From an uncultured Gammaproteobacteria bacterium (GTDB lineage Bacteria; Patescibacteriota; Patescibacteriia; Patescibacteriales; GWC2-42-12): a DNA stretch of 64,000 nucleotides. The notes beneath the pieces were generated by a model. That model did no database searches. It was not told where the DNA came from and worked only from the letters and a program-made list of their open reading frames with translations. Location: assembly GCA_964431805.1 (NCBI GenBank), contig CAYSKV010000002.1, positions 8,025 through 72,024 of the forward strand, in the 5' to 3' direction. Positions within the stretch are counted from its first letter, which is position 1. Every line of letters begins with the position of its first letter. Below are positions 3,001 to 33,804 of this stretch, in pieces. The translations under genes and the position numbers were made by a program.

Positions 3001-4245
3001 TTCTATGGCTTCTCTAAACTTTTGATCAATTACACAATTAGTCGGTCCGGCTTTACTAGGGTCAGGACACATAGTTAATTCATTTAAAATATCATAATCT
3101 CCTCTAACTTTAAAACTAGCTTCAACTAACTTTTTGAATCTTTCTTCGGCTTCAGAAATACCTCCGCTTTCATTTTGCGCACTTGGATCGGTTAAATTGC
3201 TCGTTACTCTATTTGGGAAATTTGTAACTAAACCTTTTTTCATCCATTGGTCTACTAATTTGCCAATCAAAGTATTAACAAAAACATCAATAGCATCAGC
3301 CACGGCATTCCCAGTATAAGTAGAATAAGCTTGTTTTGAACTTCTTAAAGTATCAGTGCCATACTCTTTAATTAGTACAGCTGGTGTTTTTATATTGCCG
3401 GTAATAGGATCTGTTAAATTTTTATACCCTTCATTTTGCAATCTTTCCTTGGCTGCATTATCAACATCTACATTTATTGATTGAGTCATGCCGGTTTGTA
3501 AAGTTAAGGCTATACCTAAGTCGTTTGACCAAGGATTAAACATATCCTGAAACTTAGGTAAAAAATCTTTATCTTTTAAAGCTGTGTCCCAATTATCTAC
3601 TAATTTACTAAAAGTACAAGCCGGTGCTTTAGGTTTATACGTTCTTTGTAAACCCAAATTTATTTTTAACATAACCGAAGGATTGGGAGTACAAAGATTA
3701 AATTTAACAATACCATTTTGTTTGCCTAAAGTTTCTAAAAATGTCCCGGCCGCATTATCGGCAGTATTTTTTAAATATTCTCCCCAACTCTCGGTGATAA
3801 ACATAGGTTGTTGTCCTTTATCTCCGGTAGCTAAATAAGTAGCAGTATCATAAGCCAAAGTATTTAAAAAGTTTTTTAACATTGCTTTATAAGCTATAGC
3901 AGTTGAACTTTTGAGTTCTTCTAAGGCCTTATCTATAGCCCAAGTTTTAATTTGATCTAATGTTCTATCTACTCCGTTCATTTCTGTTATACATACTTCC
4001 TTCATGCCTGCGCCTAGAGTGGCGCTATCTATTACTTCAATTTTTAACGATCCAGAAGTTTCAGATTGTATACCACCTGCAATTATATCTTCAGTCGACA
4101 TTACTTGACAAGTTTTGTTGCTTCCAAAAAGAGTAGTGGATTGAGCAAGATCTCCAATAGCAGCTTTAACATATACTAATGGTATTAATATTAGAAATAA
4201 AATTATTATAAATAAAATAAATTTTTTAAATTGACAAATTTTCAT
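1..4245 (-). CDS. Very large secreted/cell-surface protein, N-terminal 1415 codons only (3' end lies beyond the left edge). It has an N-terminal membrane anchor/signal, a CBM/LamG-like jelly-roll segment and many C-x5-G-C cysteine-pair motifs
   Basis: Absent from the ORF track because no stop lies inside the window. The reverse complement from ATG at 4245 reads MKICQFKKFILFIIILFLILIPLVYVKAAIGDL. The frame (codons = plus positions 3k+1..3k+3) was open wherever I spot-translated: ~433-465 LCGIDAVGCEA, ~700-730 CSESAVGCE, ~1825-1857 KCSAEAVGCSQ, ~2013-2040 NCKAEEAGCE, ~2262-2294 TCQAEDQGCHA, 1-60 NGNFQTLANGPTDGWNGNSQ. The other frames hold only tiny ORFs over 4.2 kb. Confidence 0.8.
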   Translation of the reverse strand, partial: MKICQFKKFILFIIILFLILIPLVYVKAAIGDLAQSTTLFGSNKTCQVMSTEDIIAGGIQSETSGSLKIEVIDSATLGAGMKEVCITEMNGVDRTLDQIKTWAIDKALEELKSSTAIAYKAMLKNFLNTLAYDTATYLATGDKGQQPMFITESWGEYLKNTADNAAGTFLETLGKQNGIVKFNLCTPNPSVMLKINLGLQRTYKPKAPACTFSKLVDNWDTALKDKDFLPKFQDMFNPWSNDLGIALTLQTGMTQSINVDVDNAAKERLQNEGYKNLTDPITGNIKTPAVLIKEYGTDTLRSSKQAYSTYTGNAVADAIDVFVNTLIGKLVDQWMKKGLVTNFPNRVTSNLTDPSAQNESGGISEAEERFKKLVEASFKVRGDYDILNELTMCPDPSKAGPTNCVIDQKFREAIEKKLTVKQAIEQGYLNRNGIFGFTSDGLEPSYKEGYPYRSMIILRKFRILPVGWEVAAQKIKDQQGLVNGTKNLQDLVDCFSSAGTWCYGLVDPGWVLKAPQNYCKKEGAGAQILSEEFSGEGAGSSLNVLRNDAYCADEQSCVKERSDGACQLYGYCTEEKRTWDFNSKSCEPRENTCQTFKLGENSFSYLQNTLDYSLCNISNAGCKKYATSGSYDSSSKSVNWDQTNQIYFNKNAETCQAEDQGCHAFIRLTPDKGETYADIRNAGVNAAYNRFASTGLIYEKLLPDYLKGACYSYGSGGILDGTLKNDAPAACSKFVRNCKAEEAGCELYTSAADDSEVPAKVSPEDYCPAECVSYDTYVQKETAFDLSRDAYFIPKTAKKCSAEAVGCSQFTNLDEVSRGGEGIEYYTYLRQCLKKTGNESSCGEFYSWEGSDESGYQLKVESLKASGAEPFVTEDDASLCNEAIYNLSPSNPAYNVDCRQFYNRQGGLSYHLYRNTVSCSDDCHPYRKTLAVDDTALACKGGVWDSTEKSCVYMAIPGQGAKCSAGQNGCREYTGNMGNDIRNIFTDDFSGGTTANWTGVNGTTVAPSNEAINLDSNNKGNSLYISGGQFSASRLAGNSVITGKSYVLSFVAKASTPTFLNLSLTNSSGAKANFAPVSLTIDWQIFQTNLADLDHAITADEILLLAAGQNFYIDNITLTEIVDRYYLIKDSWRTPASCDSDQSGAPYALYMLGCGKYADRNNKTHYLKSFTELCSESAVGCELMIDTKNSTATSTETFVNSGTTKTVLADSFTYVVYDKDKLCSSQDKGCSLLGQAYEYEDTILYGDTYIKDNPDKYNTILCGIDAVGCEAFTYNEGEKYFKDPGDQVCEWRKATESGQTYNWYKKKVKRCGGNTGEVCLSDKDCTSGVTCQLETADNPCAFSDTKTLGLGGKGGLVNQPIPDDYGNWVGICSADNSGCTEYIDPISKFSTNIIFNGNFQTLANGPTDGWNGNSQ

Positions 4246-4302
4246 AAATATGATATATTTATATTTAATACTTGTTCTATAAAATTTTTAGGAGGTGTAC
4301 AG

Positions 4303-4635
4303 ATGAAAAAAATAACACAAATGTTAATCTTAATGATTATATTCTGTTTGGGATGTGCTGGACCTGCTGTTCAAATAGGTGCTAGTTTAGCTGGTGACTT
4401 TGCTGCTCATACTTTAAAATCAGTAAATTTTTCTTCTAAACCTAACATCGCTCTTGGTAAAGAAATTGAAAAATACTATTTTGGTAATCATGTAGTAGTA
4501 ATGAGAAATGGCCTTTACAAAAGTGCCCCAGCGACTATTTTTACAGCTTACAAAAATGGACAAGAAATTCGGAGTGTATGTTATGAAGAAAAAAATTCGG
4601 AAGACCGGATAGATATGAATAACTACAACAATTAA
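4303..4635 (+). CDS. Small putative lipoprotein (110 aa)
   Basis: ORF track 4231..4635, trimmed to the internal ATG at 4303. That ATG is preceded by the only strong SD seen in the window (aggaggtgtacagATG). The product starts MKKITQMLILMIIFCLGCAGP, a signal peptide with a lipobox-like L-G-C. Confidence 0.6.
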   Translation: MKKITQMLILMIIFCLGCAGPAVQIGASLAGDFAAHTLKSVNFSSKPNIALGKEIEKYYFGNHVVVMRNGLYKSAPATIFTAYKNGQEIRSVCYEEKNSEDRIDMNNYNN

Positions 4636-5289
4636 TTACTGCCCACTTAATGTTTCCTGAAAACTTTTTAAAAGATCTTCATCGCTAATTTTATCTAAAG
4701 TCGTTTTATCCATGCCTTGCTCTAAAAGTAGTTGCCGTAAACTCGCCGCGTCTAAATTTTTTAAAGCGCTTAATTGATCGCTGGTTAAACTAGCCGTTGT
4801 GCCTGACGAACTTGATGTAGCCGATGAACTAGCGCCGCCTAATTGGTTTAATAAAGTATTGGCCGTACTATCCGTAGCCGCGGTTTGGTCAACCGCAGTA
4901 TTATCTAATAATCCGCTAGTGCAAGTTTTACCTTGCGGACAATTAGGATCATAATCTTTAGCTATTTCATCTCCATCTTTAAATCCGTCGCCGTCAGTAT
5001 CTTCTAAATAAGGTGATGTTGCATAAATATTTAATTCATCATAATCGTTTAAACCATCCGCGTCAGTATCTTTAGCTTTTAAAGCCGCATCGCTATTTTC
5101 TTCTTCGGTAGCGACTTGATTTTGACTAGTCGTACTATTAAACGGACCATAAATATTATTTTTTAACTGCACCATCCATAAAATTACAACCAAAATAGCA
5201 AAAAGCGCCAAACCCGCAACCGCGATTTTTTGGTTTTTATCAATTGGGGAAGGCGTTGGTTTTTCATTAAATGATTCGTTTTCAGGCAT
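4636..5289 (-). CDS. Membrane-anchored protein with thrombospondin type-3-like Ca-binding repeats
   Basis: ORF track, 217 aa. It has an N-terminal TM helix (IAVAGLALFAILVVILWMV), two DxDxDGxxDxxE motifs (DTDADGLNDYDE, DTDGDGFKDGDE) and a Ser/Thr-rich tail. Its stop abuts the stop of the convergent lipoprotein gene (4635/4636). Confidence 0.6.
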   Translation of the reverse strand: MPENESFNEKPTPSPIDKNQKIAVAGLALFAILVVILWMVQLKNNIYGPFNSTTSQNQVATEEENSDAALKAKDTDADGLNDYDELNIYATSPYLEDTDGDGFKDGDEIAKDYDPNCPQGKTCTSGLLDNTAVDQTAATDSTANTLLNQLGGASSSATSSSSGTTASLTSDQLSALKNLDAASLRQLLLEQGMDKTTLDKISDEDLLKSFQETLSGQ

Positions 5290-5304
5290 AGGAACTATAA
5301 TTAA

Positions 5305-5411
5305 TTCTCAATTTCTAATTTCTAATTTCTAAACAATGCTTTAATGTATTAATTTTTAAACATTAAAAAATTGAAAATTGTTTGAAAATTGAAAATTGAA
5401 AATTGAAAATT
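5305..5411. repeat. Long AT-rich compound hairpin built from heptamer repeats ('empty' copy of the family that flanks the four-helix-bundle gene); likely pheT terminator
   Basis: The left arm 5306-5336 (tcaatttctaatttctaatttctaaacaat, 3x aatttct) and right arm 5377-5406 (attgtttgaaaattgaaaattgaaaattga, gaaaatt repeats) are imperfect reverse complements. An inner 8-bp stem is TTTAATGT (5340-5347) / ACATTAAA (5360-5367). The hairpin lies directly downstream of the pheT stop. Confidence 0.7.
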
Positions 5412-5414
5412 ATA

Positions 5415-7871
5415 CTAGAAGTCTCTTATTTTTGCCTCAAACTCTTTTTCTAAATGTTTTATTAATTTTTTCTGCACTTCATCAACTTCTTCTGAAGTTA
5501 ATGTCTTATCGGCTTGATATATAATATGAAAAGCTAAGCTCTTTTTCTCCGCGCCTAGCTTATCGCCTTGATAAACATCAAATAGTTCAACTTCTTTAAT
5601 TAAATCATTAAAGTTTACAATCTGTTTCTTGATATTATTATACAATATTTTTTTATTTACCACAAATGCTAAATCCCGGCTAACAAGAGGATATTTAGAC
5701 GGCTCTTTAAACTGCTTAATCGGGCCGTTTTTTACTTGATTTAATAGCTCGGGTAAACTTATTTCCGCTATAACCGCGGATTTTTTAATACCAAAAGACT
5801 GTTTAATATTTTTTTCAAGTTCAGCTACGAATCCAATATTAGAGCCACCTACCATAATTTTTGCCGAAGCAAATTTATTATATTTTGATACTTCAAATTC
5901 AAAAGCCGCTTCTAAATTTAAAGATTTTAATAAAAATTCTATCACGCCTTTTAATTTTCTGAATAAATCTTCATTCCCATCGCTAGCTAAAGCTATGGCT
6001 AAACGCTTTTCTTGAAAAGGCAATTTTTCGCGGCCGCTATCATCTTTTTTCATTTCTCCTACTTTATTTAAAAACACGCCGCCAATTTCATAAATAGCTA
6101 TTTCAGCTTCTTGCGCTTGATTTGTTTTTATATTTTCTAAAATACCCGGAATTAAACTCGGCCTTAAAATTACTAAATCTTCGGATAACGGATTAGCTAA
6201 TTTAATTACTGAATCAAATTTTAATTTTTCAGCTTGCTGCCGACTAAGAAAAGAATAATTATAGGTTTCAATAAATCCAGCGCCTAGCGACAAAATATTT
6301 TTAATTTTTCTAACCAATAATTTTTCTTCAATCATTAATGGTGGTATTAAATCTATTTTTGGTAGTTCGGCTTTTAAATTATTATAACCATAAATTCTTA
6401 CTACTTCCTCGGCCAAATCTTCCGGTAAACTTACGTCATGTACCGCGCGCCAACTCGGCACAGTTACTTTAAAATGATTACTGCTTACCTTTATTAAAAA
6501 ACCTAGCTTTTCTAAAATTTGTTTAACTTGTTTATTGGTAAACTCATAACCAATAAATTTATTTAGCCAATTTAAATCCAATTCAATCGGTCGTTGATCC
6601 ACCCTGTTAAATAATTTTGCCTTAGGCAAAATTCCGGCTTCGCCGGATTTAACAGGGTAAACTTTATATTTTTTTTCATCAACTAAATTTGTAGCTACAC
6701 TAGCCCCGGGACAAATTTGCAAAATTAATTCTACAGCGCGAGAAATTCCTAACTCACATAAATTCGGATCCAAACCTTTTTCAAAGCGCATAGAAGATTC
6801 TGTTCTAAGACTAAGTTTTTGCGCCGTTTTTCTTACCGAATTAAAATCAAAATTAGCCGCTTCTATTATTATAGAATTCGTCTGATCATTTATTTCGCTT
6901 GTTAGCCCGCCCATAACTCCGGCTACGGCCACAGGTTTTGTTTGATTGGCAATAACTAACATACCCGATTCTAACTTTCTTTTTACGCCATCAAGCGTTT
7001 CAATAATTTCGCCAGTTTTAGAGGTTCTAACTATAATTTTATCAATAAAATTTTTATCAAAAGCGTGTAAAGGCTGGCCTAATTCAAGCATCACATAATT
7101 AGTTACATCCACTATATTATTAATCGGACGCATGCCAGCGGCCGCTAAACGATCTTGCATCCATTTCGGTGAAGGCGCAATTTTTATGCCTTCAATACCA
7201 ATTCCCATATAGCGCGGACATAAAGAAAAATTTTCAATCTTAACATCAAATTTAAAAAATATTTTTTTAGCTTTTAGAATTCCTGCTTTAGGTTGATAAT
7301 TTTTAAACTTAGTATTTAAAAATGCCGAGATATCGCGCGCCATGCCGTAGTGCGACCATAAATCAGCGCGATGGGTAATGCTTTTATTATCAACTTCAAA
7401 AACAACATCATTCAAATTTAAATAATCGCTAAAATTCTGTCCGACTTTAGCTTTGTCTAAAATTAAAATGCCGTTATGATCAGAGCCTAAGCCCAATTCA
7501 TCTTCAGCGCAAAGCATGCCATTTGATTTTACTCCTCTAATTTCTGCTGGCTTTATTTCTAAGCCATTCGGTAAAATCGCTCCGACTAAAGCTACCGGAA
7601 CTAATTGATTAGGTTTTATATTCGGCGCGCCGCAAACGATTTCTAATTTTTCTTTTCCGATATCCACTAAAGCCAACCTTAATCTATCCGCATTCGGATG
7701 AGGTTTAACTTCTAAAATTTTTCCTACGATTACATTTTTATATTTCTCGGCCTGCGCTTCAACTTTTTCTACTTCTACCGTATGTAAAGTTAAACGTTTG
7801 CCCAATTCTAAAGCCGACACTTCTTTAGGAATATCAACAAAATCACGTAACCAATTTAAGGATAGATACAT
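5415..7871 (-). CDS. pheT: Phenylalanine--tRNA ligase beta subunit
   Basis: 818 aa, starting MYLSLNWLRDFV as is typical of PheT. The length and domain order fit PheT (tRNA-binding OB, B3_4, B5, C-terminal anticodon-binding-like). It lies downstream of pheS in the same orientation. Confidence 0.95.
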   Translation of the reverse strand: MYLSLNWLRDFVDIPKEVSALELGKRLTLHTVEVEKVEAQAEKYKNVIVGKILEVKPHPNADRLRLALVDIGKEKLEIVCGAPNIKPNQLVPVALVGAILPNGLEIKPAEIRGVKSNGMLCAEDELGLGSDHNGILILDKAKVGQNFSDYLNLNDVVFEVDNKSITHRADLWSHYGMARDISAFLNTKFKNYQPKAGILKAKKIFFKFDVKIENFSLCPRYMGIGIEGIKIAPSPKWMQDRLAAAGMRPINNIVDVTNYVMLELGQPLHAFDKNFIDKIIVRTSKTGEIIETLDGVKRKLESGMLVIANQTKPVAVAGVMGGLTSEINDQTNSIIIEAANFDFNSVRKTAQKLSLRTESSMRFEKGLDPNLCELGISRAVELILQICPGASVATNLVDEKKYKVYPVKSGEAGILPKAKLFNRVDQRPIELDLNWLNKFIGYEFTNKQVKQILEKLGFLIKVSSNHFKVTVPSWRAVHDVSLPEDLAEEVVRIYGYNNLKAELPKIDLIPPLMIEEKLLVRKIKNILSLGAGFIETYNYSFLSRQQAEKLKFDSVIKLANPLSEDLVILRPSLIPGILENIKTNQAQEAEIAIYEIGGVFLNKVGEMKKDDSGREKLPFQEKRLAIALASDGNEDLFRKLKGVIEFLLKSLNLEAAFEFEVSKYNKFASAKIMVGGSNIGFVAELEKNIKQSFGIKKSAVIAEISLPELLNQVKNGPIKQFKEPSKYPLVSRDLAFVVNKKILYNNIKKQIVNFNDLIKEVELFDVYQGDKLGAEKKSLAFHIIYQADKTLTSEEVDEVQKKLIKHLEKEFEAKIRDF
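6601..6658. repeat. Y-shaped palindromic mini-element, copy 1 (inside the pheT ORF)
   Basis: The outer 12-bp stem is ACCCTGTTAAAT (6601-6612) / ATTTAACAGGGT (6647-6658). The inner hairpins are AATTTTGCC-tta-GGCAAAATT (6613-6633) and CCGGC-ttc-GCCGG (6634-6646). Confidence 0.85.
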
Positions 7872-7880
7872 ATATTAATT

Positions 7881-7911
7881 TTCAATTTCTAATTTTTAAT
7901 TTTTAAACAAT
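7881..7911. repeat. Left arm of the heptamer-repeat inverted repeat flanking the four-helix-bundle gene
   Basis: The sequence ttcaatttctaatttttaatttttaaacaat is nearly identical to the left arm at 5306-5336. Its reverse complement matches 8291-8320 at most positions. Confidence 0.7.
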
Positions 7912-7922
7912 AATTTAATTAC

Positions 7923-8267
7923 TTAATTTTTTAAACTAGAACTTATTTTATTAAAAATAAGCGTTAATTCATGTGCTTCTTTCCATAAAAGTCTTAACTT
8001 TTCAACTTCTTCTTTATTGGTTTGGGCTATAAGTTCAAGCCAATATTTAGTTTCCTGAATTTCTTTTCTACAAATATATATTTTATTTTTAAAATCTTTT
8101 CTTGAAGCAGCTCCATTAGCTTCACAATAATTTGCACCTACGCTAGTTGCCGACCTGATTAATTGTTTGACTATACTTTCGTTTATTATATTCTTATTTA
8201 ATCTTATTAATAATTCGATTATTTCTTTACTAAACTTTTTTGTCCTCTCCTCTAAATCATACTGCAT
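7923..8267 (-). CDS. Four-helix-bundle protein ('23S rRNA intervening-sequence protein' / Avd-like family)
   Basis: 114 aa. The stretch SATSVGANYCEANGAASRKDFKNKIYICRKEIQETKYWLELI matches my recollection of the PF05635/TIGR02436 signature. The gene sits between pheS and pheT. Confidence 0.8.
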   Translation of the reverse strand: MQYDLEERTKKFSKEIIELLIRLNKNIINESIVKQLIRSATSVGANYCEANGAASRKDFKNKIYICRKEIQETKYWLELIAQTNKEEVEKLRLLWKEAHELTLIFNKISSSLKN

Positions 8268-8282
8268 AATTAGGAATTAATT

Positions 8283-8320
8283 CATTGAAAATTGTTTGAA
8301 AATTAGAAATTGAAAATTTT
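8283..8320. repeat. Right arm of the heptamer-repeat inverted repeat flanking the four-helix-bundle gene
   Basis: The sequence cattgaaaattgtttgaaaattagaaattgaaaatttt is nearly identical to the right arm at 5369-5411. Confidence 0.7.
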
Positions 8321-8328
8321 AAATTATT

Positions 8329-9384
8329 CTAGAATTGTTTTAAAAATTTTAAATCACCGCTATGAAATAACCTAATATCATTAATGCCATATTTTAACAT
8401 AGCTAATCTATCTAAACCGTAACCAAAAGCAAAACCTTGATATTTTTTCGGATCAATACCGCCAGCGCGTAAAACGTTAGGATGTACCATGCCGCAACCA
8501 ACAATCTCTAACCAACCCGTTCCTTTACATAAACGACAACCCTTGCCACCGCATAAAAAACAGGAATATTCGCCATTAGATCCAGGTTCAACAAAAGGAT
8601 AAAATTTCGGACGCATTCTAAATTCAGTATCAGGGCCGAATAATTTTTTACCTAAAACTTCTAAAATAGCCTTTAAATTACTAAAATTTATATTTTTATC
8701 TATCATTAAACCTTCTAACTGATAAAAAGTATGTTCGTGGCGAACGTCGGTCGCTTCATTTCTAAAACAACGGCCGGGCACAATGCATTTTATTGGCGCG
8801 CCATATTTTTGCATGGCCCTTATCTGCATAGGCGAAGTTTGCGTGCGCATTAACATATCATACTCGCCTTTAGCATTTTTCTTGTCCTCCGTAGCTTTAG
8901 CGTAGGAGGGATGATCAATATAGAAAGTATCTTGCATGTCGCGAGCTGGATGAAAGGGAGGGATATTTAAAGCCGTAAAATTATAATAATCGCTCTCTAA
9001 TTCCGGTCCATCAAGCACCATAAAACCAAGCGAAGAAAATAAATCTTCTATTTCGTTTTGTAAAATCGTTATAGGATGCAAATGTCCTTGCTTAATTTCT
9101 ACGCCAGGTAAAGTCGCATCAACATAATCAGTCTTAGTATTTTCCCCTAAACTAATTTTAACTTCTTCAAATCTATTTATTAATTCAATTTTTATTTCAT
9201 TAGCTAATCTACCTAAAGTCTTTTTTTCTTCCGCGCTTAAATCAGCCACGCTTCTTAAAATTTTTGTCAGCTCGCCTTTTCTACCAAGATATTTTATTTC
9301 TAAATCACGCAAAATCTCTAGCTTTTTAACTTCAGCTAGTTGATTTAAAATTTCTTGCTTTAGTTTTTGTAATTTAGATTCCAT
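8329..9384 (-). CDS. pheS: Phenylalanine--tRNA ligase alpha subunit
   Basis: ORF track 8329..9417. I prefer the ATG at 9384 (MESKLQKLKQEIL) because the first 11 codons of the longer ORF overlap the upstream gene. Class II motifs are present: FRNEATDVRHEHTFYQLEG and GFAFGYGLDRLAMLKYGI. Confidence 0.93.
   Translation of the reverse strand: MESKLQKLKQEILNQLAEVKKLEILRDLEIKYLGRKGELTKILRSVADLSAEEKKTLGRLANEIKIELINRFEEVKISLGENTKTDYVDATLPGVEIKQGHLHPITILQNEIEDLFSSLGFMVLDGPELESDYYNFTALNIPPFHPARDMQDTFYIDHPSYAKATEDKKNAKGEYDMLMRTQTSPMQIRAMQKYGAPIKCIVPGRCFRNEATDVRHEHTFYQLEGLMIDKNINFSNLKAILEVLGKKLFGPDTEFRMRPKFYPFVEPGSNGEYSCFLCGGKGCRLCKGTGWLEIVGCGMVHPNVLRAGGIDPKKYQGFAFGYGLDRLAMLKYGINDIRLFHSGDLKFLKQF
8886..8909. 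repeat. Short palindromic element (CCTCC..GGAGG, 'AKATEDK' family) inside the pheS ORF
   Basis: The element is cctccgtagctttagcgtaggagg. An 18-nt core, tcctccgtagctttagcg (8885-8902), is identical to 49266-49283 in valS. It is translated as HPSYAKATEDKK. Confidence 0.8.
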
Positions 9385-9817
9385 TTTGATTAATATTATT
9401 TTCTTCTTGAATATCATTAGTGATTTTAGTCTTACTATAACTTAAAAGAAAAAATTCTAAGGCGGATAAGCCAATTATTAAAATAGCTAAATTTAACCAA
9501 CTAAATAAATTTCGTGAAAGCAAAAATAAAGCTGCTATAATAAAACCGGCGAAAAAAAATGACTGGCGAAAAGCGACTTTAACCGTGTTAATAACTAATT
9601 CATGACGAAAAATTATAAATCTAATAATAAAACCGATAATGGCGGTAGCGCCGCTGATTAATAAAAATAAAGATAAATAAAATAGAAAAAAACCAACGCT
9701 ATTAGTAGTTTCCGGGTCAACCGTAAAAACAATATAACCAAACATAACGGCGCATAGCGCCGTCATGAATGACATAACTAATAAATATAAACGTAAAGAC
9801 ATGGGATTAATTTTCAA
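9374..9817 (-). CDS. Small integral membrane protein, unknown function
   Basis: 147 aa with about four hydrophobic helices and no family I recognise. Its stop overlaps the preferred pheS start by 11 nt. Confidence 0.6.
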   Translation of the reverse strand: MKINPMSLRLYLLVMSFMTALCAVMFGYIVFTVDPETTNSVGFFLFYLSLFLLISGATAIIGFIIRFIIFRHELVINTVKVAFRQSFFFAGFIIAALFLLSRNLFSWLNLAILIIGLSALEFFLLSYSKTKITNDIQEENNINQNGI

Positions 9818-9824
9818 TTCTCAA

Positions 9825-9856
9825 TTTTCCCTGCTTAAGGCAGGACAAGCAATTTT
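9825..9856. repeat. CCTGC-hairpin element, intergenic copy
   Basis: The sequence is ttttCCCTGCTtaagGCAGGacaagcaatttt. The same flanks (ATTTTCCCTGCT ... AGCAGGACAAG-AATTTT) recur inside argS at about 44057-44096. Confidence 0.7.
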
Positions 9857-9959
9857 AAAAAAATGCCATTGAAAATTAGATAATTAATAATTCATTGATA
9901 ATTGATAATTTGTAAATTGGTAATTAATAATACTTTAACATTTTATGGCTAAATTTTCA

Positions 9960-10011
9960 ACCCTGTTAAATAAATTTTTAAGAAAAATTTCGCGTAGCGA
10001 TTTAACAGGGT
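9960..10011. repeat. Y-shaped palindromic mini-element, copy 2 (immediately after the helicase stop; probable terminator)
   Basis: The outer stem ACCCTGTTAAAT (9960-9971) / ATTTAACAGGGT (10000-10011) is identical to copy 1. The inner hairpins differ but still pair: AAATTTTT-aag-AAAAATTT (9972-9990) and CGC-gta-GCG (9991-9999). Confidence 0.85.
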
Positions 10012-12974
10012 CAACCTCTAAACTCACAAATTTCCTTAAAATCGCACCAAGCGCATAAGACTCCGGGGTTAGCTTTAAATTTACCCTGATTTATTTCTTT
10101 AATAGTATCAACAATCTTAACTTTTATTTTTTCTAAATCTTTGGCCGAGCCAATAAATTCAACCTCGCTATTATCATCAAGATAATAAAAAGCCAAGGTT
10201 TTAACTTCTTGTTTAAATAATTCCTGAACGGCTAATTGATAAATTAATAACTGCTCTTTATCTTTAAACTCAAGCTTATCTTTAGGTTTACCGGTTTTAT
10301 AATCAACTAGCTTTAAACCTTCTCCGACTTTATCAATCCGGTCAATCGCGCCGCGCACTACATACGAATCTTTACCGTCGGTAATTTTAAGATTAAAGCC
10401 TTTTTCTAGAAATAATGCCGATGGCCAGTTATCTTTATATTTTTCATAAAAACCTTTTAAAATTTCCTGACCTTGTTTTTTTCTTTCCTGCTTTTTCTTT
10501 TTAGATTCAAACCAATCATCAACCCAACTTTCTTCATAAAATTTTAAAATTTCTTCAAAAGTAATATTATCTTTTTTCGCCTTAACTTTATTATCGAATA
10601 AACCGGCCTGGCCTAAGCCCTTTTTCTCGTTAAGTAAAATAAATATTTTTTGCAAAGTTGAATGCAGGGTTTTACCGAAAGAAAATTGCTCTTTACCCAT
10701 AGTAGGAATTTTTAAAATATGGGCAAAACGATATTGATAGGGGCAGGCCGAGTAAGCCGCTAATTGCGAATAAGAAAAGTGAGTAGGAATGGCTATGTCT
10801 TTATCATCTTTAACATTCTTAACTTTTTTAGAAATTTTTAATTTATCATTTACTAATGATTTATTTTCTTCTAACGGTAATTTCTCGTTTCCAATCATAC
10901 CTAACTCTATTAAAAATCTTGATGGTTTCTTTTTAATTTTTCCGCCATAATCCGCCGCCCAAGAAAAATATAAACCAGTTTTAGCTCGCGTCATTGCCAC
11001 ATAAAATAAACGTCGTTCTTCTTCTAAATGCACGTCGCCAACGGTCAAAATTTCTTTAATTAAAGCGTCGGGTAAACTAATTTGCTCATTTCTCGCTATG
11101 GTCGGAAAGCGCTTATCCACTAAATTAGCTATAAAAACATATTTAAATTCTAAGCCTTTAGCGCCATGAACAGTTAAAATTCTAACGGCCTCAGGGCCAA
11201 CTTCTAAATCAGATTCTAAAGCGCCTTCTTCACCGGCTTCTATTTCTAAATTTAATTCAGCTAAAAAGGCTCTAACGCTTTTATCATCTGAAGAACTTTC
11301 AAAATCTTTAACTCGTTTTAAAAATTGATTTAATAAATTTATAGTTTCAAGATTTTTTTGCTCGCCTAAACGACTTAAATATTTTAAATAACCGCTGTCA
11401 TTCATAAAAGCTAAAAAAACTTCGCTGATTGGTTTTTCTCGAGCTAAAATTGAATGTTTAGAAATTAAAGTTAAAACAGCTTTTACTTTTTTTTCTAAAT
11501 CAGCCGAAAATTTTAAAACACTGCCGCTATTTATAACTTCAAAAAGCGACCAGGCCTTTTTATTAGCTAAATGATTAAAATTTACTAATTCTTCGGAAGT
11601 AAAATTAAAAATCGGTAAACTTAATATGCGCCATAAAGCTAAACTTTCATGATAATTATCTAATAATTTTAAATAAGCTACTACGTCCATAATTATCGGT
11701 TTAGCGTAAAGACCGCGCGAAGAACCGAAAATAAAAGGCAGCCCGCGGCGATCAAATTCAGCCATAAAATCATTAGCCGAATCGTTAGCGCGCACTAAAA
11801 CCGCAAAGTCATTTAGACTAACGTTTTTATTTTTATTCTTTAGTTCAATTATTTTATTTGCCACTAATTTTACTTCTCCATCTAAATCAGCGCCTTGTAA
11901 AACTTCAATTACGCCGGCGCCAGAATTTTCAGCGATTAACTTTTTACTTAAATTTTTATCTTTTTTAAATTGCCATTCTAATCGGTTCGGATTGTTTTGC
12001 TTAATAAATTCATAAGACAAATCTAAAATATTTTGTTGGCTGCGATAATTTTTAGTTAAAACTATTTTTTCAGCTTTAGGATAATCTTTGGAAAATTGCA
12101 AAATATTAGACATGGAAGCGCCGCGAAAACGATAAATTGATTGATCGTCATCGCCTACGACCGTTAGATTATTAGTCGGCTCAGCTAAAAGTTTTACTAA
12201 TTCATATTGCGCCCAATTAGTATCCTGAAATTCGTCTACTAAAATATATTTAAACTGCTTTCTATATTTTTCTAAAATCGCTGGGCGTTCGCGAAATAAT
12301 TTTAAGGTGTAGTTTATTAAGTCGCCAAAATCTATGGCGCTATTATCTAATAATAATTGCTGATAAACATGATAAGCATTAGCGATTTCATTAACGCGCG
12401 CAACTTCCTGCTCTACTATTGTCTTGTCAGAAACGCCGGATAACATACCGTCTAAATTTTGCTTTAACCCATCGGCATAATTTAAATAATCGGCCGGCGA
12501 AATATCTTCATCTTTAGCGCGAGAAAAATGTTTTAAGAGAGCGCTAATAAATTTAGTCGGATTGCCTAAGGGGCGATAATAATCTAATTCAAACTTATCT
12601 AAATTCTTTTTTATTAACGCCCATTGCTCAAACTCATTTAACAATTTAAAATCGCCTGGTAGTCCTAAGCTTAAACCATGCTCTTTTAAAATCCGCTCGG
12701 CAAAACTATGAAAAGTTGAAACCCATAAATCAAAATAACCAATCGGCAATAGCGACCCAACCCGATCTTCCATTTCCGCGGCCGCTTTTTCCGTAAAAGT
12801 TAAAGCTAAAACTTCGTCAGATTTAGCTAGGCCTTGTTCAATTAAATAAGCGATGCGCTGGGTAATAACCGTAGTTTTACCGGTACCTGCTCCAGCCACA
12901 ATTAAAAGCGGTCCGTTTTTATGTAAAACTGCTTTTAGTTGTTCTTTATTAAGATTTTCTAATAGATTATTCAT
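10011..12974 (-). CDS. UvrD/PcrA-type superfamily 1 helicase fused to a C-terminal PD-(D/E)XK (AddB/Cas4-like, Cys-cluster) nuclease
   Basis: 987 aa. The N-terminus carries AGAGTGKT (Walker A), DEFQDT and other UvrD-like blocks. The C-terminus carries SACPYQY ... DRIDK ... DYKTGK ... CAWCDFKEIC, consistent with a RecB-family nuclease with 4-Cys ligands. Confidence 0.85.
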   Translation of the reverse strand: MNNLLENLNKEQLKAVLHKNGPLLIVAGAGTGKTTVITQRIAYLIEQGLAKSDEVLALTFTEKAAAEMEDRVGSLLPIGYFDLWVSTFHSFAERILKEHGLSLGLPGDFKLLNEFEQWALIKKNLDKFELDYYRPLGNPTKFISALLKHFSRAKDEDISPADYLNYADGLKQNLDGMLSGVSDKTIVEQEVARVNEIANAYHVYQQLLLDNSAIDFGDLINYTLKLFRERPAILEKYRKQFKYILVDEFQDTNWAQYELVKLLAEPTNNLTVVGDDDQSIYRFRGASMSNILQFSKDYPKAEKIVLTKNYRSQQNILDLSYEFIKQNNPNRLEWQFKKDKNLSKKLIAENSGAGVIEVLQGADLDGEVKLVANKIIELKNKNKNVSLNDFAVLVRANDSANDFMAEFDRRGLPFIFGSSRGLYAKPIIMDVVAYLKLLDNYHESLALWRILSLPIFNFTSEELVNFNHLANKKAWSLFEVINSGSVLKFSADLEKKVKAVLTLISKHSILAREKPISEVFLAFMNDSGYLKYLSRLGEQKNLETINLLNQFLKRVKDFESSSDDKSVRAFLAELNLEIEAGEEGALESDLEVGPEAVRILTVHGAKGLEFKYVFIANLVDKRFPTIARNEQISLPDALIKEILTVGDVHLEEERRLFYVAMTRAKTGLYFSWAADYGGKIKKKPSRFLIELGMIGNEKLPLEENKSLVNDKLKISKKVKNVKDDKDIAIPTHFSYSQLAAYSACPYQYRFAHILKIPTMGKEQFSFGKTLHSTLQKIFILLNEKKGLGQAGLFDNKVKAKKDNITFEEILKFYEESWVDDWFESKKKKQERKKQGQEILKGFYEKYKDNWPSALFLEKGFNLKITDGKDSYVVRGAIDRIDKVGEGLKLVDYKTGKPKDKLEFKDKEQLLIYQLAVQELFKQEVKTLAFYYLDDNSEVEFIGSAKDLEKIKVKIVDTIKEINQGKFKANPGVLCAWCDFKEICEFRG

Positions 12975-19832: not shown

Positions 19833-22800
19833 TTATTTTGTACATCTAAATCCTACATTATTATTTTGTTCTGCAGGACTATGCGATAAGTCAAGACTAT
19901 AGATTCCATCAAACCCTCTAATAAAACCTCTAACAGGAACGTCGCCTGCTCCGGTTAATATTTTACCAATTCCATTATTAGAAGATGTCAAATAATATGC
20001 GGGTTTAAGATATTGTAAAGATTTAAATGACGATATTAAATTATATTCCTGCCATTCATCTGAGAGCGGATTAATTGTATCATCTTGAGTAATATTTGAA
20101 TCTGTCCACTCACTCACCTCGCCCACTAAATTGTTAATCAAGTTATCATTATTTAATTTGTAAGATATGGAAGTGGTGGCGAGTTGCATGCCAGCAATAT
20201 TGGTATCGCTATCATTGTCAGGATTTTGCAAAATATTTTCAGCGATAGTTAACCATTCATTTTCACCAATTAAGTGATAACCCGTGCCTAGAGTTTGGCA
20301 AGCGATTTGAGCTTCGCCCTGAGAGATATTAGTTTTGATTTGGTCTAATTCATCTTTCATTAAATCTGCTTGGACGCAGAAACCAGGCAAGGTGCCATAT
20401 TTAGCTGAGCCAGGCACCCAGACAAAACCGTCTTCGCAATAACCCTCGAAAGCTCCGGCCACAACTTTGCCTTCAACGCCTAAATCAGCCATGGTTTCAT
20501 CAACCGCTGAGTCTAGGGCGTTAGAGCAATAACCGCCGGCGCAGAGCATAATACGACCGTCAACTAACATTGAGCCTGCGACTTTAACTTCACCGCTTTG
20601 AGCTATATTCATAATAGAGACGCCGTTAGCTTGAAAATCTGCGATATCGCCTGAACCTGATTGATTAACTATGAATGCGGTTTTAGTTGAGGAAGCGGTT
20701 ATTTCGGTTAGTTCAACAATCTTAACTTCTGGCTCTTGGCCTGGTTCTGAGACTGAATCTTTACCGATTATGATGCTGCCGTTTTCATCAAACGACATTA
20801 TATTCTCACCATTCTGGTTTTGTAAAAATAGAGCTTGTGGAGTAATACCGCTGGCGGCTTCGGTAAAGCGGAAATTGTTGGCAAAAATTAAATCACCGAC
20901 GTAGGAGTTAGTGGCGTGCAGAGTGCCTAAAACATCTAAATTACTGGCGATGGTTGAAGTACCGGTTCCGCCGACTTCGAGGAGGCCTGAGATATAGGCT
21001 GAATTATATTTATCGCCAGCGAGTAGATAGACTGGGGTGCTTGAACCAACCGTCAGAAGAGCTTGAGGAGAGGTGGTGCCGATGCCGACATTGCCTGAAG
21101 CGTCAATAATGAACGGCGTAGCGTCGGGAGAAGTAGAGTCTTCAACTATAAAACTCGGACCGGTACCGGTGTTGGTGACGGACAATTTAGCGTAAGGAGT
21201 AGTAGAGCCGATGCCAACTTTTCCAGTCGATAAAGTTGTTCCTGTTCCATCCATTCCGGTTGCAAAAATCAGATTGCCAATATTAAGTTGATTACTTGTA
21301 GTTGGAGATGTGAGTTCAACATCTTTTCCAATAAGTATGTTGTTTGCTCCAGAGCCTAAAACTGAACCGGAATCAGAACCGATTACAATATTATAATTGC
21401 CAACAGTTGTTGCTGATGCTTGATAACCAGCAGCATATCCTAAATATGTGCCATAGCTTCCTTGAGCATTTCTACCAGCACCATATCCTAGAGCATTATT
21501 GCTATTGTTGTTTGTAGTAAGACCAAAAAGAGCATGACTACCGAAAGCATTATTAAAAGAATATGAATAATTAGAATTGTTTCTTAAAGCGTTCTGGCCA
21601 AAAGCAGCATTGGATGATCCTGTTTGATTTCCTTGTAAAGTAGCATACCCAAAACCAGCATTGCCAATACCTGAAATTAGCGAGGCAACAGCGCCATTAC
21701 CAAAAGCATCATTATCATTTCCTGTTGTTAAGGCAGCTAAAGCTCCTGAGCCAAAAGCTGATGAAGTTGAACCTCTTGTAACAACAGGCATAGCACCATT
21801 TCCAAAAGCAGTAACATAATTTCCAAGCCTACCAAAAACTACTCCATCACGATAAATTATTCCTGCCGTTGTATTGTTTTTATTATAAATCCAATCAGTA
21901 GCAGTTGTATCCATTGCGCTATTGTCACTATAAGTTGTTGTGGTGTTGTCATTTATGGTTCCAATATAATAAAGGTAATAATAATCTCCGACGGTTCCAG
22001 CCTGCGAGCGATAAATCTTTCTTTTAGTAACTCTTGGATCGGTAGAAGTTGGAATATTTGAAATTGAAACACTGAAATCACTAGCAGAAGTTATTGTAGG
22101 GAAAATAGTATAGGAGGCTCCACCTGTATCTCCATCCGCTGTCCCGAAGGCTACCGCGTAATAATATGTTCCGGCTGGTATTGATCCGGCGCCACTATTA
22201 GTTAGAACCATTCCTTGAGTTTGAGCATTTGTTGGATTAGCCACCGTATCAAAATTAAAGTTTCCTGCTACTTCAAGAGTTTTTGATATTGTTGTGTCAT
22301 ATGACTGCCCGATTTTTACCCTATTGTCATCACGGGCCATGATAATATTATTGCCGGATGAATTATTAACATTAAAACTATAAGTGGATGATGTTGATCC
22401 CGATCCGATTATGCTAAGTCTTGAGGTAGGTGAAGTCGTTCCAATTCCCACATTACCATTACTCGCCACAGTTAAATAAGTTGATGTAGCGGCACCAGCG
22501 GTTGAAGAAGCTACAACGAACAAAGGAGCAGAACCACCCAAAGTATTTTCTACTGATAATTTAGCATAAGGAGAAGTTGTACCGATGCCGACGTTACCAG
22601 ATGTGGAATCTATAGTCATTCTCGCAGTATCATTAGTGAAAAATTGAAGTGGTGTTGCATTATCTGTTCCAAACACCGTTGCATATGTCAAGCCTCCGTT
22701 ACCAAATATTCCTGTTCCCGCACTACTTGAAACCCCAATTCTTCCTGCTCCCAAACCAGCGTTATTAAAAGCAATATAATAACCGGAAGTTGTATCTACT

Positions 22801-25800
22801 CCGATTGTTCCTCCATATGCAGAAATTGATCCAGTGGTTGAAAATGAATTTGCAGTAACTCCTGAATTAAAAGTAAAGTTTACTCCAGAACTTTTTGTTA
22901 TAGAACCATCACCCAAAGAAATACCGCCCGTAGAACCATTTCCAAAAATAGCATTTGAAGTTGAACTTGCTCTAAAAGTACCGGCGACATCTAGCGAATA
23001 ACTTGGATTCGTCGTGCCGATGCCGACATCGCCGGAGTTATCAATTACCATTTTCGTAGTAACTGCTCCGAAGCCGGTGCCGAAGGCCAGACCGGTCGCG
23101 CCCGCGCCGAATGTATAGCCTCTAATATCGGCCAATTCCGAACCCGAGCTGGTGCCGTTGCCCGTGAAGACAATCCGCGGACCGCTACCGACAGTAGCGG
23201 AAGCCACGGCCGCCTGGAGTTTAAGCACATTTTGTCCGCTCGTACTTACCGCCGCCGAGCTATAAACATCCAGCAAGGTATTGGGCGTAGTTGTGCCGAT
23301 CCCGACATTGCCTGAAGCGTCAATAATGAACGGCGTAGCGTCGGGAGAAGTAGAGTCTTCAACTATAAAACTCGGACCGGTACCGGTGTTGGTGACGGAC
23401 AATTTAGCGTAAGGAGTAGTAGAGCCGATGCTGACATCGCCGGAGTTATCAATTACCATTTTCGTAGTAACTGCTCCGAAGCCGGTGCCGAAGGCCAGAC
23501 CGGTCGCGCCCGCGCCGAATGTATAGCCTCTAATATCGGCCAATTCCGAACCCGAGCTGGTGCCGTTGCCCGTGAAGACAATCCGCGGACCGCTACCGAC
23601 AGTAGCGGAAGCCACGGCCGCCTGGAGTTTAAGCACATTTTGTCCGCTCGTACTTACCGCCGCCGAGCTATAAACATCCAGCAAGGTATTGGGCGTAGTT
23701 GTGCCGATACCGACGTTGCCGCTACCTTTCATAACAAAACCAATTGTGTCGACAGTTGAAGTTAAGCCAGCAGAATATCTAAAAGCAATTGCGTCATTAA
23801 TATCATTATTTAATAAATCAAAAACAAAATGATTATTTGCTGCTGATGATAAACGAGTAGCATACGACGTAGAGCCAGGATTTAAACCAGAAACATTAGA
23901 ATATGGATCTATAATTAAACCTCCACCAATTGCTGTTGAAGGGAGTACCGTTATAACATCTGCTCCAATAGTTTCATCTTTTAAATAAAAATTGCCGCCG
24001 TGAGTACGTATACTATAAGAACGAAGGGTTGCATAATTATCATCTAAAGTAATTTTGGGATTATCAGATTGTAGATAAAGTAAACTATTTGGACTCGTCG
24101 TCCCAATTCCCACATTCCCGTTACTAGCTATATATAAACTGCTGGTCGCTGTCCAGGCAGAATTTTGATAAGTTAAAGTTTGCCCGGTTGCGCCGATTGG
24201 CAAAGAATCAATACCTGCCGTAAATAAAGTTGAAGTAGCTACCCACTCAGTAGCTGAACCAGTGGTTTTTAAAATCATACCGTTAGTTCCGGCCGATGAT
24301 AATGAATCATACAATGCTCCGGTTAGAGCCATATTGCCGGCGACTGAGAGAGTTTGATAAGGGGAAGTTGTGCCTACACCAAGATTAGTCCCATCAAATA
24401 CAAAATTAGCGTTATCAGTTAATCTTCCATTTGTTGTAGCAAAAGGAATACGACCAGAAATAAGATCAATCCCATCATTTAAAACAAAACCTTTTCTATC
24501 ACCAACAACACTCCCTGATTGTAACTCTATTCTTCTAACGCCCATCCAACTTTCAGTAGACCATCTATCTGCGAATTTAAATGCGTAATATCGATATGCA
24601 GTATTATTTGTAACATTTATATATTTAGGATCGGCCTGATCTGCTGCAACATGTTGATCAAAAGTAGATTGAGAAGTTGTTAGCTGAGTCCAATTAGTGT
24701 CTATTCCATAAGTAAGTTCAGCAAATGCGTTCGCGTCATTAGAACCCCACAAAGTGAAATTTTTCACACCACCGCCAGTTGATCCTCCGTAATGATGAGC
24801 ATTCTCATAATATATTCTTGTTACTACCATACTTGAACCAAGATCTATATGGAATCGCTGATTAGTGATACTGCCATTTGCCCCTACCCATGAATTATTA
24901 TTTTGTTGACTTCCTGTAACTGATAATGATGGATTAGTAGCATAATAAGGCCAATAAGATGCATCATATATTGATGTTGCTTTGACGTAAGTATCTGAAT
25001 AAGCTAAAGGATAATTTGAAACAAAGCCGTTTGAATTTATTGATCCATAAAATGAATTACCGTCAAATTCTATTGCCCCAGCCTCAGATGTAGCTAATAA
25101 TGTCCCGGCTGTAAATTTAAGCGGAGCAGCCCCGGCGGTAGTGGTTCCTGCCGCTAGATGCAAAAACGCTGATGGAGAGGTAACACCAACCCCAATATTT
25201 CCATTCGCCTCTATATATAAACTCGAAGTCGCAGTCCAGGCAGAATTTTGATAAGTTAAAGTTTGGCCGTTTGTTCCGGTTGGTAAAGTACTAACTCCGG
25301 CCGTGAATAAAGTTGAAGTCGCTACCCACTCAGTAGCCGAACCGGTAGTTTTTAAAATCATGCCGTTAGTTCCGGCTGACGATAATGAATCATAAAATGC
25401 TCCTGTTAAAGCCATGTTGCCAGAAACGGAAAGAGTCTGATAAGGAGAAGTTGTGCCGATGCCGACGTTGCCGGTATTTGTTATGGTTAAAAAAGCATGA
25501 GATGTTGCCGCAGTTTCTCTGTCATGAGCTGATACAGAACTCTTTCTTCCAACTACATAATAATCTGATGATATATTATCATAAGGTCGTCCACTAAACC
25601 ATTCTGTATCGCTACTTCCATTAAACATATACAAACCCTGCCCTCTCTTAACGTCAGCTGAAGTATTTAATACTAAAGCACCGCCATGATAAAGTGATGA
25701 ATTTGTACCAGTAATAGTTAATTCTGGATATAAACCAGAAATTTCCACAGCAGTTGTCGGATTCGTAGTTCCAACGCCCACATTTCCATTACTCGCTACA

Positions 25801-33464: not shown

Positions 33465-33804
33465 GGGGATGTATCGTTTTGAGCTTACTTTTTATTTTTT
33501 CAGCTCGGGAACTATAATTAATATATTTATTTAATTTTAGAGCAAACTTACTTTAATGATTATCAAATGCTTATCAATTTTATGTCTTTATTATAACATA
33601 AAAACGCCTAAAATTATATGTTTTATTTGGTTTAAAATGTTTAAACTATTATTTTAATCTTATACTTTAAAATGTCACCACTTTTTAATGCAAAACTGAT
33701 TAGATAGCTATTACTTTTAGACTTACATTAGGTTAAATTTTAAGGCTTAATTTTAAAACTGCTTTTTAAAAAAAATTGATCGCACACAAACATAAATCTA
33801 ATAA

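Follow-up and report, generated by a model that had tools for sequence, protein, structure and literature searches.

Why does a small gene for a four-helix-bundle (4HB) protein, enclosed by inverted arrays of a 7-nucleotide repeat, stand between pheS and pheT, two genes that follow each other almost directly in most related genomes? The question is raised by a 64-kb stretch of contig CAYSKV010000002.1 (assembly GCA_964431805.1, positions 8,025 to 72,024), from a bacterium of the Candidate Phyla Radiation (CPR); this whole stretch is called the window here, and its G+C content is 35.6%. The reading that we favour, and consider on balance probable, is that gene and repeats together are a stem-loop cassette of the type of the intervening sequences (IVSs) in 23S rRNA, located here in an operon of protein-coding genes. 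The parts of the locus are the following, in transcription order:

8329-9417, minus strand, pheS, upstream host gene (Pfam Phe_tRNA-synt_N and tRNA-synt_2d); the cassette starts at its stop codon
8268-8331, minus strand, transcript-5' arm, found as inverted repeat; an almost identical sequence lies upstream of close 4HB homologues elsewhere
7923-8267, minus strand, PF05635/TIGR02436 4HB open reading frame (ORF) of 114 amino acids, found by profile matches and an AlphaFold2 model
7871-7922, minus strand, transcript-3' arm, found as inverted repeat; conserved downstream of homologues
5415-7871, minus strand, pheT, downstream host gene (Pfam tRNA_bind, B3_4, B5, tRNA_synthFbeta and FDX-ACB); the cassette ends at its start codon

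According to the gene calls, with Pfam labels taken from the identical contig L001, all genes around the cassette are encoded on the minus strand. Read on this strand, the transcript-5' arm has the sequence AATTTTC AATTTCT AATTTTC AAACAAT TTTCAATGAATTAATT and extends from the pheS stop codon (8329-8331) to 7 nucleotides (nt) before the ATG of the ORF. The transcript-3' arm, AATTAAATT ATTGTTT AAAAATT AAAAATT AGAAATT GAAAATT, begins 2 nt past the stop of the ORF and reaches the pheT start codon (7869-7871). The arms are 80% complementary over 41 nt (7871-7911 with 8291-8331) and 77% complementary over 47 nt (7877-7923 with 8272-8318), and in a search for inverted repeats within 1500 nt this pair ranked first in the whole window. 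Tandem Repeats Finder (TRF) reported an array of period 7 with 4.6 copies in the transcript-3' arm (7875-7906), and further arrays of this period at 5305-5332, 5367-5411 and 9868-9931. Both arms, joined by a tetraloop, fold with -25.5 kcal/mol compared to -12.3 +/- 2.9 kcal/mol for dinucleotide shuffles (z -4.6, none of 300 shuffles as good), and the minimum-energy fold of the whole 481-nt region includes a long-range stem of 20 bp. The initial annotation had described the ORF as bracketed by an imperfect inverted repeat whose arms match a hairpin at 5305-5411, and inverted-repeat search and alignment both confirmed this. A similarity of the arms due to chance in low-complexity DNA was considered and ruled out by the clustering of the matches, the rank of the inverted repeat, the shuffle z score and the conservation across loci.

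The encoded protein belongs to the IVS-protein family, with 63.8 bits against PF05635 (E 2e-17, curated cutoff 33.8) and 80.2 bits against TIGR02436 (E 1.2e-22, curated cutoff 24). The AlphaFold2 model, computed from an alignment that included 20 homologues, consists of four helices (pLDDT 87.7). In Foldseek the top match of the model was 2RLD, annotated as 'S23 ribosomal protein family' (E 6e-5, TM 0.68-0.82), which phmmer also detects on the sequence level (E 3.6e-14), followed by 2GSC (XCC0516, TM up to 0.84) and then by Avd (4DWL), the accessory protein of diversity-generating retroelements (DGRs), and the DGR ribonucleoprotein 8UB7 (TM 0.65-0.67). Sequence similarity to Avd was undetectable with phmmer. 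Together with the published statement of homology between PF05635 and Avd (PMC10053308), these matches uphold the earlier assignment to the IVS-protein family with an Avd-like fold. From the published family motif GxxRxxxSxxxNxxE (PMC3936711), the residues R38, S42, N46 and E49 are present with the expected spacing (R38-x3-S42-x3-N46-x2-E49), and all four are invariant or nearly so across 20 homologues; the leading G is missing, with Q35 three residues before R38. The protein is basic (predicted isoelectric point (pI) 9.2). Pfam, NCBIfam, PADLOC and PHROGs revealed no transposase or nuclease domain; PADLOC gave 0 matches and PHROGs one marginal match with unassigned function, and no relative was found on viral contigs. 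A search with the protein gave 3025 relatives at E 1e-5 or better, and the best 120 of these 3025 are 69-100% identical and carry the labels Falkowbacteria, Moranbacteria, Parcubacteria or Patescibacteria. Avd itself was also considered as the identity of the protein and was ruled out, since neither a reverse transcriptase nor template/variable repeats are adjacent.

The ORF is the sole PF05635/TIGR02436 gene of the window. The repeats that flank it occur at two further places, where they form hairpins that contain no ORF (solo hairpins):

5302-5412, strand undefined, solo hairpin of the same family between pheT and the next gene, found by inverted repeat, fold and alignment
about 9809-9931, strand undefined, third heptamer hairpin between the UvrD-like helicase gene and a membrane ORF, found by pattern matches and TRF

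The arms of the first solo hairpin (5302-5337 and 5377-5412) are 36 nt long, 81% complementary and 39 nt apart, and as RNA the hairpin folds with -26.5 kcal/mol (z -5.5). When the ORF is removed from the filled element, the two can be aligned end to end, with 46 of 51 positions identical on the 5' side and 50 of 58 on the 3' side (score 165 versus 78 +/- 6 for shuffles). The earlier proposal that filled and empty forms are one inverted-repeat family holds on this score. The alignment, and a loop that still contains the end of the ORF with its final codons and stop, suggest that the solo hairpin arose from a filled cassette by internal deletion. The hairpin at about 9809-9931 is more diverged: its units are of the GATAATT type, and its loop contains a small GC hairpin. 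Heptamer-pattern matches in the window numbered 25 (expected 10.8 +/- 3.7) and clustered only at these three hairpin places. Thus, three such hairpins are present in 64 kb, and one of them encloses the only 4HB gene. From the sequence comparison both solo hairpins look like members of the same element family, of which at least the first appears to be a copy that lost the ORF. The first is present in the close relative L110 and missing in L007; the other is also missing at the corresponding place in L007. The solo hairpins are therefore polymorphic, as L007 lacks both.

The pheS-pheT junction was also compared across relatives. Scanning metagenome contigs that contain pheS yielded 80 loci, and pheT could be located in 67 of them. 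In 49 of the 67 loci the spacer between the two genes is at most 30 nt long, typically TAA-N(1-24)-ATG. Junctions with other contents were found in the following relatives:

L007, a Falkowbacteria metagenome-assembled genome, pheS 84% identical: same cassette with arms, protein 84% identical
L110, the closest genome (83-89% nucleotide identity), pheS 89% identical: a different PF05635 gene with different arms at 3995-4445
L141, pheS 82% identical: a GIY-YIG gene in a G+C-rich inverted repeat, nested within remnants of heptamer arms
L145, pheS 68% identical: a NUDIX hydrolase gene (157 amino acids) between perfect 25-nt inverted repeats of the heptamer type, 1634-2246
L154, pheS 57% identical: a bare heptamer hairpin
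L188, partial pheS, 91% identical: a G+C-rich palindrome, then a NIF3 gene
L162, pheS 64% identical: a NIF3 gene

The PF05635 gene at the L110 junction encodes 123 amino acids (E 1.5e-28), of which only a stretch of 42 can be aligned with the 114-aa protein (43% identical), and its arms are 21 nt long and 86% complementary; this points to a replacement of the cassette or to an independent insertion at the same junction. The NUDIX gene in the L145 hairpin means that hairpins of this kind can carry genes other than 4HB genes. Judged from these alignments, the cassette was inserted at a pheS-pheT junction that is otherwise tight, and this site is an insertion hotspot. A comparison of filled with empty junctions revealed no clear target-site duplication in the AT-rich flanks. 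The initial annotation had proposed that an IVS-like cassette was inserted in pheST; the short spacers in 49 of 67 relatives and the matching architecture of the Coxiella IVS (PMC4990558) both speak for it. A second, G+C-rich palindrome family with the units TTGTCATTGCGAG...GCAATCTC and GAGATTGC...CTCGCAATGACAA was seen in L141 (2835-3321), L142 (2058-2183) and L188 (521-700). It also occurs at the pheS-pheT junction, flanks the small GIY-YIG gene in L141 and contains no ORF in L188.

Are gene and arms linked elsewhere? Close homologues of the protein (64-87% identical) were found in at least eight unrelated genomic contexts of CPR bacteria, and in all eight that have gene calls the gene is co-oriented with both neighbours, at distances of about 40-120 nt. 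The contexts comprise pheS/pheT, pilin genes of a type IV secretion system (T4SS), giant ORFs, NIF3/amino-acid kinase, type IV pilin genes, T2SSF/pilin and glpX/aldolase. Arms of the AATTTTC type flank all 11 close CPR homologues for which the flanks were read as well as one 49%-identical homologue; the homologues in the eight contexts have nearly identical arms, as have four more cassettes that were located via the arm sequence. The link between gene and arms foreseen in the initial annotation therefore held for every close homologue examined, including L007, which has the ORF at the junction together with the arms. The shared 5' arm reads ...AATTTTCAATTTCTAATTT(T/C)(C/T)AAACAAT and the shared 3' arm ATTGTTT(G/A)(A/G)AAATT(A/G)(G/A)AAATTGAAAATT.

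Between cassettes the nonsynonymous divergence (dN) is 0.09-0.29 and the synonymous divergence (dS) is saturated, with a dN/dS of about 0.12 or lower. By this measure the 4HB protein is under strong purifying selection and therefore functional. The 28 nt of each arm beside the core have a mean identity of 88-89%, in comparison to 56% at synonymous third positions (chance 30-38%). Since the arms are more conserved than synonymous sites, their sequence is, as far as these alignments tell, constrained beyond the requirement for pairing; alternatively, the arms are homogenised against a constrained repeat family. Recent horizontal spread was considered as the cause of the arm conservation and is ruled out by the saturated synonymous sites. 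In two of the contigs, L013 and L008, the upstream gene and the entire cassette are common and the sequences diverge exactly past ...GAAAATTGAAAATTA at the outer end of the 3' arm, owing either to a rearrangement where the arm ends or to a join made at a repeat during assembly. Second PF05635 genes lie at most 2 kb from the cassette on L227 (4322-4357) and L222 (1-144); one of them is bAvd-like and preceded by repeats of 8 instead of 7 nt (CAAGCAAA).

The same design was found in other phyla. A tblastn search of plasmids gave 29 records, mostly cyanobacterial, of which 12 loci were read. In 10 of the 12, period-7 arrays flank the 4HB gene on both sides, and in most of the loci with arrays on both sides the downstream unit is the reverse complement of the upstream unit. 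Period-7 arrays account for 26% of the bases up to 150 nt from the gene in the 12 loci versus 1.5% elsewhere in these loci, and in 9 loci the gene is co-oriented with both annotated neighbours. Examples of the array pairs (upstream/downstream) are TAATTCG x4.7/AATTACG x4.7 in Nostoc C052 and Dolichospermum, AATCGTA/ACGATTT in Planktothrix, AAGTCGG/ACTTCCG in N. punctiforme, AATTCAA/AATTTTG in N. flagelliforme, ATTTTAG/AAATCTA in Gloeocapsa and ATGAATT/TCATAAT in Chlorohelix (Chloroflexota). Exceptions are Nostoc UHCC 0870 with a long inverted repeat that is not built from heptamers, Bernardetia with arrays in direct orientation, and Pseudanabaena with a complex arrangement. A 50-kb stretch of a Nostoc flagelliforme plasmid, in which 7 is the commonest tandem period, carries two 4HB genes, each within a perfect inverted pair of about 33 nt and each with its own heptamer (GCAATTC and TAATTCG), and in addition two ORF-less inverted heptamer pairs. 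Even at a G+C content of 57%, in the metagenome contig L167, a 4HB gene lies amid GGTAGGA repeats with copies of CTCCTACC downstream. Arrays near 4HB genes vary little in length (mostly about 31-34 nt or 4.4-4.9 copies), and the heptamer itself differs across phyla (TAATTCG, GCAATTC, AAGTCGG, AATTCAA, ATTTTAG, ATGAATT, GGTAGGA). That complementary arrays are kept while the heptamer changes amounts, in these alignments, to covariation across the whole family, and judged from the loci read the inverted-heptamer-array design is general for the PF05635 family across phyla. We found no description of PF05635 genes outside rRNA with inverted heptamer arrays in the literature, of which subscription journals were mostly uncovered, and an earlier mention is possible. 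Genes of this type had been noted between cmr3 and cmr2 (PMC3936711) and between gmk and nadD in Flavobacterium (PMC5524665). Many of the plasmid 4HB genes are located inside operons, among them defence operons (drmD/MmeI, helicase/methylase, DUF1156/Swt1-HEPN, csx2/cas1, cas2/cas1; L229, L231, L232, L233, L235, L236 and L237, on cyanobacterial and Chloroflexota plasmids).

The closest known counterparts are the 23S rRNA IVSs with an S23p ORF of Leptospira, Coxiella burnetii, Brucella and Xanthomonas, which encode a protein of the same family in the loop, in sense to the host transcript. In the Coxiella IVS, a terminal stem of 28 bp encloses the S23p ORF, which is encoded in sense, and the 5' arm contains GACAGAT heptamers (two or three), at the first of which RNase III cuts (PMC4990558). 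Terminal inverted-repeat stem, tandem heptamers in an arm and short ORF-less versions are thus common to IVSs, which are regarded as selfish (PMC4990558), and to the cassette described here. The host differs, being the protein-coding operon pheS-pheT instead of helix 25 or 45 of 23S rRNA. The Coxiella ORF is seemingly unexpressed and decaying while the IVS persists (PMC4990558), whereas the 4HB protein of the cassette appears to be under strong purifying selection. RNase III processing was demonstrated for the Coxiella IVS and is proposed by analogy for the pheST cassette. In every testable feature but location, then, the cassette matches a 23S IVS; it is not a strict member of this group because it lies outside rRNA. 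PF05635 ORFs within rRNA insertions of CPR bacteria have been recorded as 'functionally uncharacterized' (PMC11270868). The window contains no rRNA gene, and a scan with Rfam found only two tRNAs above the gathering cutoff; none of the hairpins matched an Rfam family at E 1 or better.

In the picture that we favour, the PF05635 gene would travel with its two inverted heptamer arrays as one unit, and this unit would have entered the tight pheS-pheT junction in an ancestor of the Falkowbacteria-like CPR lineage. The 4HB gene would then belong to the pheST transcript: transcription within the operon is most likely because the gene has the same direction as pheS and pheT, and its co-orientation in 8 of 8 CPR contexts suggests that it has no evident promoter of its own. 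The arms are predicted to pair as a long A/U stem that brings the stop codon of pheS beside the start codon of pheT, with the ORF forming the loop. By analogy with the 23S IVSs this stem is probably a substrate for RNase III, and cleavage would free the 4HB message and separate the pheS message from that of pheT. For this last step, the release of the 4HB message and the uncoupling of pheS from pheT by stem cleavage, the chances for and against appear about equal. It might also be possible that the arms are sequence-specific cis elements, potentially bound by the 4HB protein itself, which is suggested by the fact that protein and arm sequences are both kept by selection.

One genome per species was scanned with the 18-nt arm core TTTCAAACAATTTYCAAT, which resulted in at least 119 stretches; a strict two-core regular-expression census missed most solo hairpins and was not used. 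Among the core matches listed, 74 are preceded by AATT-phased heptamers, almost all of them in CPR genomes or CPR-like bins. Most of these 74 listed matches belong to solo hairpins whose second arm lies at a distance of 22-110 nt, and 6 of the 74 enclose a 4HB gene, so ORF-less hairpins are far commoner than filled ones. Solo hairpins with two identifiable neighbours lie between co-directional genes in 22 of 25 cases, and many take up nearly the whole spacer, leaving 0-15 nt to the stop and start codons. A scan for promoters and terminators was uninformative in this AT-rich DNA: the arms hold promoter-like hexamers such as TTGAAA, and they contain no terminator-type combination of a G+C-rich stem and a T run.

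Several observations weigh against an IVS-type cassette that acts through its RNA. The fold of the 481-nt region is overall not better than that of shuffles (z -1.25), and the stem is A/U-rich with bulges. A crude motif search did not identify an RNase III gene in the 64-kb window; the single motif match was a spurious EFLGDA inside an ORF of 4552 amino acids. In 22 solo hairpins oriented by their neighbouring genes, stem mismatches that would be G-U pairs numbered 73 on the sense and 88 on the antisense strand, and 12 cassettes oriented by their ORF showed no asymmetry in fold stability between sense and antisense (p 0.2). Since a strand-specific G-U or folding signal is missing, selection might act at the DNA level, and the transcript is not singled out. 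Arms and solo hairpins also occur without a 4HB gene, around other cargo or as single arms inside rsmA and valS, and the arms therefore have an existence independent of the 4HB gene. Finally, the saturated synonymous sites indicate that the CPR cassettes are old and not recently spreading copies.

Part of this evidence would fit a foldback or MITE-type (miniature inverted-repeat transposable element) mobile element acting as DNA, in which the inverted heptamer arrays are terminal repeats that are recognised or recombined. Such an element could move with a transposase supplied in trans, via intermediates of hairpin or cruciform shape or, following natural transformation, by homologous recombination of one array with another. 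On this view the 4HB gene would serve either as cargo or as a factor for mobility or maintenance, with any RNA stem being a by-product. The polymorphism at one site in close relatives, both as presence or absence and as cassette swap, would be expected from it, as would the excess of ORF-less copies (6 of the 74 arm matches listed have a 4HB gene), a solo copy that resembles a deletion derivative, the lack of a strand-specific G-U signal, the single arms within coding sequences and the divergence of L013 and L008 precisely where the 3' arm ends on its outer side. We nevertheless regard a DNA element as unlikely: the protein has no transposase or nuclease domain, no target-site duplication is recognisable, and the saturated synonymous sites between cassettes leave no room for a recent burst. 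In addition, a DNA transposon would need neither the co-orientation (8 of 8 CPR contexts, 9 of 12 plasmid loci) nor arms that precisely abut stop and start codons. An ordinary small gene between the generic terminator, promoter or translation signals of an AT-rich genome, with an inverted arrangement that is incidental, is very improbable. It would account for the solo hairpins that occupy numerous intergenic spacers up to 0-15 nt before a start codon, for the promoter-like hexamers such as TTGAAA in the arms and for the NUDIX gene that is flanked in the same way. However, generic signals should not be confined to three hairpins in 64 kb with one of them around the only 4HB gene, the arms accompany every CPR cassette that was examined, and beside non-CPR 4HB genes there is an 18-fold enrichment of arrays. 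In most relatives the junction lacks a spacer altogether, a G+C-rich stem with a T run is missing, and the promoter scan is uninformative at such a composition.

A further possibility is that each PF05635 paralogue binds its own heptamer array, as RNA or as DNA, so that the gene is autoregulated via the flanking target and the ORF-less hairpins form a regulon in which processing, stability or translational coupling of operon mRNAs is controlled. It could explain why the arms evolve far slower than synonymous sites, why two paralogues on one Nostoc plasmid have the distinct heptamers GCAATTC and TAATTCG and why the array length is stereotyped, and a basic protein (pI 9.2) with a fold relative, Avd, that is part of a ribonucleoprotein (8UB7) would suit such a role. 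Heptamer arrays at start codons of Beggiatoaceae, cyanobacteria and Bacteroidetes have moreover been proposed to be a post-transcriptional network, one for which no factor was named (PMC4679880). The correlation between protein type and heptamer type is, however, also expected from common descent of whole cassettes, and the IVS of Coxiella persists even though its ORF is seemingly unexpressed and decaying. We consider this possibility doubtful. Both it and the DNA element are compatible with the IVS-type cassette, and these readings are not mutually exclusive.

More broadly, heptamer repeats are over-represented in Xanthomonas, Nostoc, Beggiatoaceae and Bacteroidetes, sometimes as inverted pairs, and have no assigned function (PMC4692102, PMC4679880). 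These simple-sequence repeats (the short tandemly repeated repetitive sequences (STRR) of cyanobacteria, GGGAATC in Xanthomonas and TAACTGA in Beggiatoaceae) are intergenic and often lie beside start codons (PMC4692102, PMC4679880). A term search of both texts gave no mention of IVS or four-helix-bundle proteins. The tandem 7-nt units of the window are likewise intergenic, and in Nostoc plasmids such arrays directly bracket 4HB genes; in contrast to the STRR-type heptamers, the arrays here are a complementary pair around one gene family. As a tentative proposal, PF05635 proteins might be the missing protein partners of the bacterial heptamer tandem repeats. A paralogue with its own inverted arrays would then be a self-contained module, the ORF-less hairpins and arrays of the same genome would be targets or non-autonomous copies, and the 23S IVSs would be the special case of modules that landed in rRNA. 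If this is true, it covers the cyanobacterial STRR, the heptamers of Xanthomonas and Beggiatoaceae and the AATTTTC hairpins of CPR bacteria.

PF05635/TIGR02436 is a very large family, with more than 3000 relatives of this subfamily alone, and it is known mainly from rRNA IVSs and as a relative of Avd. The cassettes described here are wrapped in hairpins and lie inside transcription units, even between the genes for essential tRNA synthetase subunits of a reduced CPR genome, and IVSs could be recast as a general class of operon-invading stem-loop elements. This would provide a testable link among the function of IVS proteins, the origin of over-represented intergenic heptamers and the way in which small genomes cope with insertions into operons whose genes are tightly coupled. 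A stem that is processed would act as a natural device to split or re-couple polycistronic messages.

Other known systems resemble the cassette in part. REPIN-RAYT systems and pairs of MITEs with autonomous elements also have one gene between copies of an inverted repeat, many dispersed ORF-less hairpins and a presence that varies among relatives. Terminal inverted repeats with many dispersed ORF-less copies, as in MITEs, were found for the cassette family. Unlike in these systems, neither HUH/Y1 nor any other transposase domain is present in the 4HB protein, a clear target-site duplication was not recognised, and the repeats consist of tandem heptamers. Eukaryotic foldback transposons have long inverted terminal arrays of short tandem sub-repeats, and most of their copies are ORF-less while some carry an ORF in the loop; they belong to another domain of life and are not homologous, so that the analogy is architectural only. 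Avd shares the related four-helix-bundle fold and is a small basic protein that acts in a ribonucleoprotein. The neighbourhood of the cassette is a different one, with no reverse transcriptase or template/variable repeats beside pheS, pheT and these genes:

10011-12974, minus strand, UvrD/PD-(D/E)XK helicase gene, the first of the locus in transcription order
9374-9817, minus strand, membrane ORF between the helicase gene and pheS in transcription order
4636-5289, minus strand, gene for a TSP3-repeat protein, following pheT in transcription order

Two cases of heptamer arrays within coding sequences were observed. In valS of the window (49007-51688, minus strand), an in-frame period-7 array of the AATTACG/AATTCGT type with 5.6 copies is located at 49851-49889 and translated as ...ITNYELQTTNYKF...; its unit is the heptamer that flanks 4HB genes in Nostoc and Dolichospermum. 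In rsmA/ksgA of two CPR-type genomes (L100, minus strand, core at about 330-347, and L024, core at 3581-3598), a single arm of three to four AATTTTC units followed by TTTCAAACAATTTYCAAT lies in frame in a variable loop before VANLPYNIT and is translated as ...IIFNFQFSIFKQFSISNFQ..., with no partner arm nearby.

Many of the contigs with CPR-type genes and hairpins were in third-party bins titled 'uncultured Gammaproteobacteria', 'Planctomycetia' or 'Bdellovibrionales' (L024, L027, L050, L067, L074, L110, L114, L117, L118, L130, L133 and others), and these titles look unreliable. In the window, positions 19836-33491 of the minus strand contain 4552 codons without a stop, presumably a gene for a giant protein, and giant ORFs also adjoin the homologous cassettes in L014-L021.

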